From the NCBI GenBank assembly GCA_051313645.2, contig JBNRSN020000060.1:4278001-4342000 (forward strand): a DNA stretch of 64,000 bases, given 5' to 3'. The DNA comes from Centroscyllium fabricii. Taxonomy: Eukaryota. Below, piece after piece: positions 10,229 through 13,200 of this stretch. Position 1 is the stretch's first letter, and each line of letters opens with the position of its first letter. Both the position numbers and the translations under genes were made by a program. The notes beneath the pieces were generated by a model. The model ran no database searches, was not told where the DNA came from, and was given only the letters and a program-made list of their open reading frames with translations.

Positions 10229-13200
10229 CTAAACCACAGTGCAGGACACAGCATTAGAGCAAATAACCAACTTGGTCACTGAGGTGTTTTGTAAAATCTA
10301 CAGTCTAAAAAATTCGATAAAGCCCAAAAAGTGGGGCGCGGTTTGCTCGCGCCCATAGAGAGAGCGCAGGCAGCGCCTTTATTTTAGCGCTGCCTGTTGA
10401 CTGCAATGATTGCAGTGCAGAATCGACCGTGCAATGTGCTGTTTCAGGCAGTGGGCTCAGCGGGAGGCTGAAGGTTGGGTCTAAACTATCTGCGCTACCG
10501 GATCAGCAAATCGAGATTTAGGAATCCGAAGTGCACGTTTGTGGTTCTGTTTCTCGTGTTTTGTAGGTTGATAGCGAGGGATGTGCAAGATGTGCTTTGA
10601 GCTTTGAGCTGAGAATTGAAAAGTGGTGAATTGGTAAGACGCTTACAGAAGTATATTTAATTTAATTTATTTATTTATTTAAGAGAGTGTAAGTTAAAAA
10701 TAAATTACATTTATTCATTTAAACTTATTTTGAAGAAAAACCGGAAGTTGAAGAACGATTTAAAAAGGGGCGGGACTTAGTGCGGCGTGCACAGAGTGCG
10801 GAGGGCATAGAGTGCTAACGAGAGTTTGGTTAGTGGGAGAGTTCGGGCAAGTGGGAGGTGAGGGGGGTGCTTCTCTGTTTGCTTCTGTCCCAACTCTTAG
10901 GTTCGGCTAGCGCCACAGAAGAGGAGTGGCAGGGCAATCCGAAGGAGGTTGATAATCAGCTGGTTGGTAAGTACTCTTGCTTCCCTTTTACTCTTTATAC
11001 CTCATAGGTGGAAAGTGCTCTTAAATAGCGTGATATTTAGCTATATCGGGGCAAAGGTTTTTTTTCGTTTTGCGTAACTAATAATAAGTATAATTAAATA
11101 TATAGAATGGGTGAGCAGGTGATGTGTTACTGCTGCGAGATGTGGGAGTTCGTGGACACCATTGATGCTCGCGGTGACTACATTTGCAGCAAGTGTTTGT
11201 TGCTCGAGGAACTCCGGCTTCGTGTTGATGAGCTGCAGTCCGAGCTTCAGACACTGCGACACATCAGGGAGGGGGAGAGTTACCTGGACTTTGTGTTGCA
11301 GGAGATAGCCACACCAAATAGATTAATTAACTTAAATGTAGATCGTGGCCAGGGACAGGATGGTGTGACTATGAGTGAGGCAGGTACGGGAATCCAGGAG
11401 GTAGTGTTGGAGGAGCCGCAGACCTTGCTCTTGTCCAACAGGTTTGAGGCTCTTACTCCCTGTGAGGGCGGGAGCGGGGACTGTGGGGAGGATGAGCAAC
11501 CTGGCCACAGCACCATGGAGCGGGGGGCCATTCAAGAGGGGGGAGTTAATAGAAATGTTGTAGTGGTAGGGGACAGTATCATCAGGGGGATAGATAGGGT
11601 TCTCTTCAACCGAGAGCGGGAGTCCCGAAGGCTGTGTTGCCTGCCTGGTGCCAGGGTTAAGGACATCTCTTCTGGGCTGGAGAGAAACTTGCAGTTGGAG
11701 GGGGAGGATCCAGTTGTCCTGGTACATGTTGGTACCAACGACATAGATAAGACAAGGAAGAAGGTTCTGTTACAGGAGTATGAGCAGCTAGGGGTCAAAC
11801 TAAAAAACAGAACCTCAAGGGTAATAATCTCTGGGTTATTACCTGAGCCACAAGCGAATTTGGCTAGGGTAAATAAAATTAGGGAGTTAAATGCGTGGCT
11901 CAAACACTGGTGTGGGAGAAGTGGGTTTTGCTTCTTGGGACACTGGCACCAGTACTGGGACAGTAGAGAACTGTTTCGGCGGGACGGGCTTCACCTGAAC
12001 CGGGCTGGGACCGGTGTCCTGGCGAATCATATAACTAGGGCTGTAGAGAGGGCTTTAAACTAATTAGTGGGGGGTGAGGTTTCTAGAGAGCAAATAAATA
12101 AAATGGCACTGGAGAAGGTAATGGACATAGGTAACAACGGGGCAATTAAAAGACAGAGTGTGTCAGGAAGGGAAAGAATTTATGGAAATAAAGGTAAAGT
12201 TGAAAAAAGGGAAAAAGCAGGAATGAAGTGTCAGACATATTTGAAAGTCCTTTATTTGAATGCACGTAGTATTTGTAATAAAATGGACGAGTTGATGGCA
12301 CAAATAATTACATATGGGTATGATCTTGTGGCAATTACGGAAACATGGCTACAGGGTGACCAGGACTGGGAATTAAACATACAAGAGTATTTAACAATTA
12401 GGAGGGACAGGCAGGAAGGAAAGGGAGGTGAGGTGGCTATGTTAATAAGGCAAGGAATCACGGCAATACCGCGAAATGATATTGGCTCAAAGGATCAGGA
12501 TAGTGAAACAGTTTGGGTGGAAATAAGAAATAATAAAGGGAAAAAAACACTGGTGGGCGTAGTCTATAGGCCTCCAAACAGTTGTAACTCAGTTGGTCGG
12601 AGTATAAATCAGGAAATAGTTGGGGCTTGTAATAAGGGAACAGCTATAATTATGGGCGATTTTAACTTTCATATTGACTGGACTAATCAAGTTGGACAGG
12701 GCAGCCTTGAGGAAGAGTTCATTGAGTGTATTAGGGATGGGTTCCTTGAACAGTACGTAACTGAACCGACCAGGGGGCAAGCAATCTTGGATCTGGTCCT
12801 GTGTAATGAGACAGGATTAATTAAAAATGTCCTAGTAAAGGATCCCCTTGGAAAGAGTGACCATAACATGGTCGAATTCCAAATTCAATTAGAGGATGAG
12901 AGGGTTGGATCTCAAACAAGGGTACTGAGCTTAAATAAAGAAGACTATGATGGTATGAGAGCAGAATTGATTAAGGTGGACTGGGGAAACAGATTAAAGG
13001 GTAAGACGGTACATGATCAGTGGTGTGTATTCAAGGAGTTATTTTATAACTTTCAAGAAAAATATATTCCACTGAGGAAAAAGGGGTGTAAAAGAAAAAA
13101 CAACTATCCGTGGCTAAGTAAAGAAATAAAGGAGAGTATCCGACTAAAAACAAGGTTATATAAGGTAGCTAAATCTAGTGGGAAGATAGAAGATAGGGAA

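Follow-up and report, generated by a model that had tools for sequence, protein, structure and literature searches.

In most vertebrates CR1 is described as the dominant retrotransposon (PMC13343379). The main text of that survey covers two-ORF and ORF1-less forms, contains no lineage with fused ORF1 and ORF2, limits poly-A to Zenon, and nowhere uses the words frameshift, slippery, fused or overlap. For the LINEs that have been studied, reinitiation after termination is the described route to ORF2 (PMC2881922, PMC5972666). Among non-LTR elements, the available text of a recoding review names only HeT-A and TART; it also lists U_UUA_AAC, together with G_GGA_AAC, A_AAA_AAC and G_GGU_UUU, as the four heptamers most prone to shifting on mammalian ribosomes (PMC5009743). 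Work on 2A sequences argues that the functions of ORF1 need to be produced separately from ORF2 (PMC3708506), and the ORF1p of ZfL2-1 was dispensable in HeLa cells (PMC3905857). In the literature covered we found no description of how CR1 produces its ORF2 and no report of frameshifting at the ORF1/ORF2 junction of CR1 or another LINE; this coverage did not extend to older CR1 papers, and earlier speculation is possible.

Here we analyze such a junction in the window, by which we mean the whole stretch of 64,000 nucleotides of DNA under study. Judging from its sequence, the end of CR1 ORF1 very probably carries a programmed -1 ribosomal frameshift site, with ORF2 following in the -1 frame. A minority of ribosomes would likely slip back one base at U_UUA_AAC and make an ORF1-ORF2 fusion, the predicted active form of the endonuclease/reverse transcriptase, and most would stop and release free ORF1p, following the logic of Gag and Gag-Pol. 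A preliminary description had raised the frameshift as a possibility; it is now supported by fixed codons and by a natural in-frame lineage that matches the predicted product.

Table 1. Positions of the CR1 features discussed, numbered within the window.
Feature	Position	Strand	Remark
CR1 LINE copy, family A	10592..15324	+	5' edge approximate; full-length appearance
Tail of the family A copy			short TTCTTATG-type repeat, without poly-A
ORF1, 318 aa, ending RALN*	11107..12063	+	SGNH esterase, PF13472, E=1e-10
Slippery heptamer T_TTA_AAC	12054..12060	+	X_XXY_YYZ phase with ORF1
TAA stop of ORF1, immediately after the heptamer	12061..12063	+	
G-run, with one extra base in this copy	12069..12075	+	family has G7; closes -1 frame at 12075-12077
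Linker from heptamer to endonuclease, with ATG at 12103	12064..12240	+	
ORF2 body: APE endonuclease and reverse transcriptase	12241..15052	+	
Heptamer and TAA, 5'-truncated CR1 copy, family B	27134..27143	+	
Family B linker and endonuclease, open in the -1 frame	27144..28096	+	G5 at 27151-27155; endonuclease from 27320

A tail of short repeats instead of poly-A is characteristic of CR1, and the copy of family A combines it with an ORF2 of APE and RT and an ORF1 with an SGNH esterase, as in canonical esterase-type CR1. We take the name CR1 from the nearest named proteins, which belong to shark, ray, turtle and bird elements. Ahead of the esterase, ORF1 has a Cys-rich N-terminus and a stretch that looks coiled-coil-like by eye, and its nearest proteins are those of rays and sharks. 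The genome measures 7.2 Gb.

All coordinates of the preliminary description hold: GCT TTA AAC TAA occupies 12052-12063 with the heptamer at 12054-12060 in phase with ORF1, and both the G6 at 12069-12074 and the TGA closing the -1 frame at 12075-12077 were found again on re-reading. ORF2 indeed follows the TAA in frame 0 in this copy. Since the window copy, with G6-T-GAGG, is one base longer than its family, which reads G7-AGG, this frame is a private lesion; a closed -1 frame behind G6 is not the state of the family, where the frame behind G7 is open. ORF2 is also broken by a frameshift near 13502-13554. The window copy is dead and cannot use the signal itself. Among the best 30 junction loci of family A, including that of the window (2790 candidates, 40 scored), TTTAAAC is present in 30/30. 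The endonuclease is open in the -1 frame in 23 of them, with a count of 22 of 29 for the close relatives; it lies in frame 0 in three and in frame +1 in four, the latter two through differing private indels.

A second heptamer, at 27134, had likewise been noted for an ORF2 in the -1 frame. This frame is open into the endonuclease, with the refinement that the copy, which belongs to family B, is 5'-truncated just before the heptamer, only a few bases away, and has no ORF1. Its relatives do carry an ORF1, ending in GLN*, and family B loci have kept the heptamer in 30/30 and the -1 phase in 28/30 cases. In one family B copy (L052) the junction, comprising ORF1 end, heptamer and G-run, is duplicated in tandem. 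As a 7-mer alone the heptamer is not rare, with 17 matches in the window on both strands; the excess over chance lies in the constancy of its position, phase and codons from family to family.

The window also contains three decayed LTR elements, presumably Gypsy-like, at 24326-26996 (-), 34073-36198 (+) and 41495-44849 (+), in which gag, protease, RT and integrase motifs were read by eye. A LINE of another type is represented by a 625-aa RT frame at 47919-49796 (+) between long GA-rich repeat arrays (46490-47749 and 49700-54040), and further CR1 RT fragments lie at 3942-4880 (-), 28526-29656 (+) and 30631-31257 (+).

How general is this junction? Protein queries, which are blind to codons, retrieved 120 loci in the source genome. 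The heptamer is intact in 84, 82 with a stop and two with a mutated one; 21 loci are fused, 14 have an altered heptamer, nine of these next to an unstable G-run in a single older family, and one was not aligned. The family of L314-L343 has G-runs on both sides of the heptamer, and several of its copies show G_TTA_AAC or changes in run length. A scan of metagenomes added 24 loci. Among these, the same heptamer occurs at bird-like, sturgeon-like (labels judged from protein likeness) and further distant junctions; the ORF1 end is absent in 10 of the 24. Across a range that extends from shark-like fishes to bird-like copies, the heptamer has kept the same letters, which is why we consider it likely that CR1 obtains its copying enzyme through ribosomes slipping back by one base.

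The codon test was carried out on 17 representatives with a median ORF1 identity of 49%, in which the same residue is encoded by the same codon in 46% of cases; they were hand-chosen as family-typical and share ancestry, and are thus not independent. Their last codons are xxT-TTA-AAC in 17/17, a single codon is used in 0/41 other conserved columns, and TTA makes up 14% of the Leu codons. The variation between synonymous Leu and Asn codons that the preliminary description had proposed to look for is absent: TTA, AAC and the preceding T each occur in 17/17. The stop behind the heptamer is TAA or TAG in all 17 representatives, and TGA in L073.

At the protein level, LN* is invariant in 22/22 aligned ORF1 proteins, beyond the catalytic S/D/H, and LN ends 50 of the 101 full-ended representatives of 50% clusters (150 examined). 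The residue in front of LN can be encoded with a final T in 49/50; one of 50 cannot, compared to 15% expected (p=0.002). Hosts of these proteins are chondrichthyans, bony fishes, turtles, squamates and birds, with lizards, a snake, turtles, an eel, a sturgeon and a swallow among those named. The last of these, Hirundo rustica (P0066), bears out the bird ORF1 ending RALN* given in the preliminary description. Gene models of stork and ibis read FKLD(S/L)KG in the ORF2 frame.

The linkers between heptamer and endonuclease have 15 different lengths of 80-260 nt, and ORF2 lies in the -1 frame in 18 of 19 measured representatives; the one exception is a single copy. A stop in the -1 frame lies a few codons ahead of the heptamer in most representatives. 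The linker residues evolve as if neutral and the frame nevertheless stays open, which argues for a translated spacer. Among older copies taken without selection, namely the first 40 on contig C1 that have the heptamer, the phase is kept in 16 of 36 measurable linkers, and the out-of-phase ones carry varied private indels, mostly in the G-run, as expected of decay after insertion.

These data bear on the idea that no slip takes place at all, and that the TAA is read through into a frame-0 ORF2 or Leu-Asn is merely conserved as protein. The frame of ORF2 in the window copy agrees with readthrough, and the invariant LN of the ORF1 alignment with conservation of the protein. However, frame 0 is restricted to 3/30 family A loci, which reached it via different private insertions, and selection on the protein can fix neither synonymous codons nor the third base of a variable residue. 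The family A frames, the linker phases and the codon test largely refute this idea, to which we assign hardly any probability.

A more familiar route would be termination and reinitiation as in SART1 or L1, with a restart at a nearby AUG or non-AUG codon and the heptamer as part of a reinitiation element. L1 is able to restart ORF2 without an AUG, and in-frame ATGs do occur in the linkers of families A, B and others. The ATG at 12103, suggested in the preliminary description as an alternative start, lies in the ORF2 frame of the window copy as claimed, but has no counterpart in several families. Linker ATGs differ in place between families, and in eight representatives the stretch from the upstream -1 stop to the endonuclease contains no Met at all. 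There is no overlapping stop-start, and no SART1-type AUG overlapping or near the ORF1 stop is kept across relatives. Reinitiation would also leave unexplained the -1 phase that is open upstream of any ATG, back to the heptamer, the codons xxT-TTA-AAC, and a lineage that lost the stop and kept ORF2 under selection. We consider it unlikely, and prefer the -1 frameshift.

What could promote such a frameshift? Local folds of 23 representatives and both window sites are no better than those of shuffled sequences (z near 0). A duplex scan of the G-run against the whole element gave a best value of -18.9 compared to -17.8 +/- 1.0 for shuffled sequences, no duplex partner of the G-run common to the families was found within 400 nt downstream, and a two-tier G-quadruplex pattern is not universal, being present in only 9/17 representatives. 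Conserved 3' of the heptamer are the adjacent stop and G at +11 to +15 (14-16 of 16). The junction has an in-phase X_XXY_YYZ, an ORF2 open in the -1 frame (in the families, not in the copy at 12054) and synonymous conservation, as befits a -1 frameshift site; no structure was found 5-9 nt downstream, and the site is therefore not classed as a classical pseudoknot or stem-loop type. We infer a weak, structure-free site, at which the adjacent stop and the G-run may promote the slip in place of a pseudoknot, slow termination and a G-run near the mRNA entry channel being candidate aids. A low output would suit a LINE ORF2.

A G-run that is conserved without structure could also hint at another kind of cis element, such as a splice branch or acceptor, a promoter or protein-binding element, or a polymerase slippage site, with ORF2 being joined or started at the RNA level. 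The CTAAC/CTAAT at the junction, which we take to resemble a splice branch point, is followed by AG|G in many families. Against a splice site, a pyrimidine tract is lacking, families H188 and H188b do not have the AG, and bird-like and sturgeon-like copies read CTAG; moreover, spliced forms would be retrotransposed, and there are none among the loci examined. Runs of three bases are poor slippage tracts for polymerases. Such an element is very unlikely to account for the junction.

The frameshift reading predicts a specific fusion protein, and one lineage encodes it in its DNA, which is new here. By exact patterns, 850 genome copies have one extra T after AAA and 2870 have the heptamer and TAA. 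The extra T joins ORF1 to ORF2 as RALN-LISGG, the same letters as predicted for a tandem -1 slip on U_UUA_AAC, and creates one ORF of ~1315 aa with esterase, endonuclease and RT. In other families one-base insertions at the junction occur in 20 of 16,883 copies, and none is a T. On contig C1, the first 60 copies of the fused and the first 40 of the unfused form differ in median divergence (1.0% versus 3.5%) and in the number with an ORF2 open over at least 980 aa (10/60 versus 0/40). In a ladder-like tree, 51 of 52 fused copies form a tip clade with a support of 0.89. Truncation points and flanking DNA differ among the fused copies, with some flank sequence common to eight pairs, and 36/60 retain the repeat tail. 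They are the youngest branch and were inserted independently. A near-identical cluster of fused copies (L089, L094 and L103-L114 on contigs C1333, C719, C856, C778, C1 and C113), many of them on few small contigs, was possibly amplified by segmental or tandem duplication. An older copy (L215, G000:C1:95030371-95036571) has the same extra T but another linker and is 15% away from the fused clade; the T may have originated a second time there, or the copy may be a recombinant or belong to an older branch of fused elements. Contigs assembled from four sequencing runs, three of them guessed to be RNA, were not taken as evidence on expression. Organisms A and B show only unfused junctions there, and organism C, which may be the source of the window, has both forms; among the run contigs shown, none has a splice-like joint at the junction.

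Has this lineage used its fused product? Variants common to at least six fused copies, which are mostly nested haplotypes, amount in ORF2 to 18 silent and 9 replacement changes, compared to 156 and 378 for private variants (p=1e-4; L215 was excluded from the counts as a 15% outlier). As the shared ORF2 variants are mostly silent, the lineage was using its own ORF2 under purifying selection. In ORF1, shared variants are 3 silent to 10 replacement, like neutral, and 7 to 1 in unfused copies, a contrast with p=0.008 at a threshold of 6 and p=0.09 at a threshold of 4. ORF1 constraint appears relaxed in the fused lineage. An ORF1 stop or frameshift common to the fused copies was not found, and 0/10 frameshift events are shared, which is weak evidence. 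The G-run is broken in a sub-branch of 10 fused copies, and the ATG at 12103 is kept in 59/60. With this ATG persisting and ORF1 residues looking unconstrained, an internal start of ORF2 is possible in the fused lineage. For such a start any ORF1 lesion would do; the lesion that was fixed sits in the heptamer and gives the predicted product, which favors a functional fusion, although the persisting ATG keeps this short of proof. The fused lineage appears to contradict the argument for making ORF1 functions separately (PMC3708506), or to escape it by relaxing ORF1.

Do more distant relatives follow the same principle? Twelve of 51 distant ORF1 representatives without a final LN have QGN, SGN, SKN or AKN as their last residues, against a per-position background of 0.5%; in others the corresponding place is taken by xKN or xGF. 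Such endings fit G_GGA_AAC, A_AAA_AAC and G_GGU_UUU; examples are P0087, P0093, P0113, P0112, P0133, P0160 and relatives. Because these proteins are interrelated and known as protein alone, they are a lead only. DNA for relatives ending in QGN or xKN was absent from scans of viral contigs, and genome contigs yielded bacterial esterases only. An ORF1 profile search for longer fused proteins returned one weak match. A query with the fused protein found one single-copy fusion, P0236, a 1054-aa esterase-endonuclease-RT from a distant family normally ending in YLN; its sequence across the junction is YLKL, the outcome expected of a one-base insertion. A wider proposal, to which we give an even chance, is that all esterase-type CR1 make their RT as a Gag-Pol-like fusion by a structure-free -1 frameshift at heptamer, adjacent stop and G-run. 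Distant relatives would use G_GGA_AAC, A_AAA_AAC or G_GGU_UUU, and the youngest lineage would have abolished the switch; it would replicate by means of the fusion only and be losing its ORF1 function, and ORF1-less CR1s would arise by this route.

If true, the frameshift would overturn the working view of LINE ORF2 as a separate, reinitiated protein. CR1 would have a retrovirus-like ratio of ORF1 to fusion, the annotated ORF2 start would be corrected, and a site without classical stimulator would be at hand. The fused lineage provides a natural in-frame control, in which the role of free ORF1p is directly testable.

In its general architecture, the locus corresponds to the canonical vertebrate CR1 as far as described in the main text of the survey, with the same esterase ORF1, APE and RT in ORF2, and no poly-A tail (PMC13343379). 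With SART1 and its UAAUG coupling, and with the reinitiating L1, it shares a bicistronic LINE RNA and a low, ORF1-dependent ORF2 output, going by the available accounts of these systems (PMC2881922, PMC5972666, PMC3708506); SART1 and L1 yield a separate ORF2p, whereas CR1 has no shared AUG and is predicted to make a fusion. The gag frameshift of HeT-A and the StopGo of 2A are alike in being recoding events in non-LTR elements (PMC5009743, PMC3708506). HeT-A, as presented there, shifts inside gag and has no RT, and 2A splits the products of one ORF, so that CR1 is unlike both. A close parallel in the recoding review is retroviral and LTR Gag-Pol together with coronavirus 1a/1b, including the U_UUA_AAC of IBV, where the heptamer also ends an upstream structural ORF and the enzyme lies in the -1 frame (PMC5009743). 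CR1 differs from these in its non-LTR host, in having an adjacent stop and a G-run at +11 to +15, and in that no pseudoknot or stem-loop was found.
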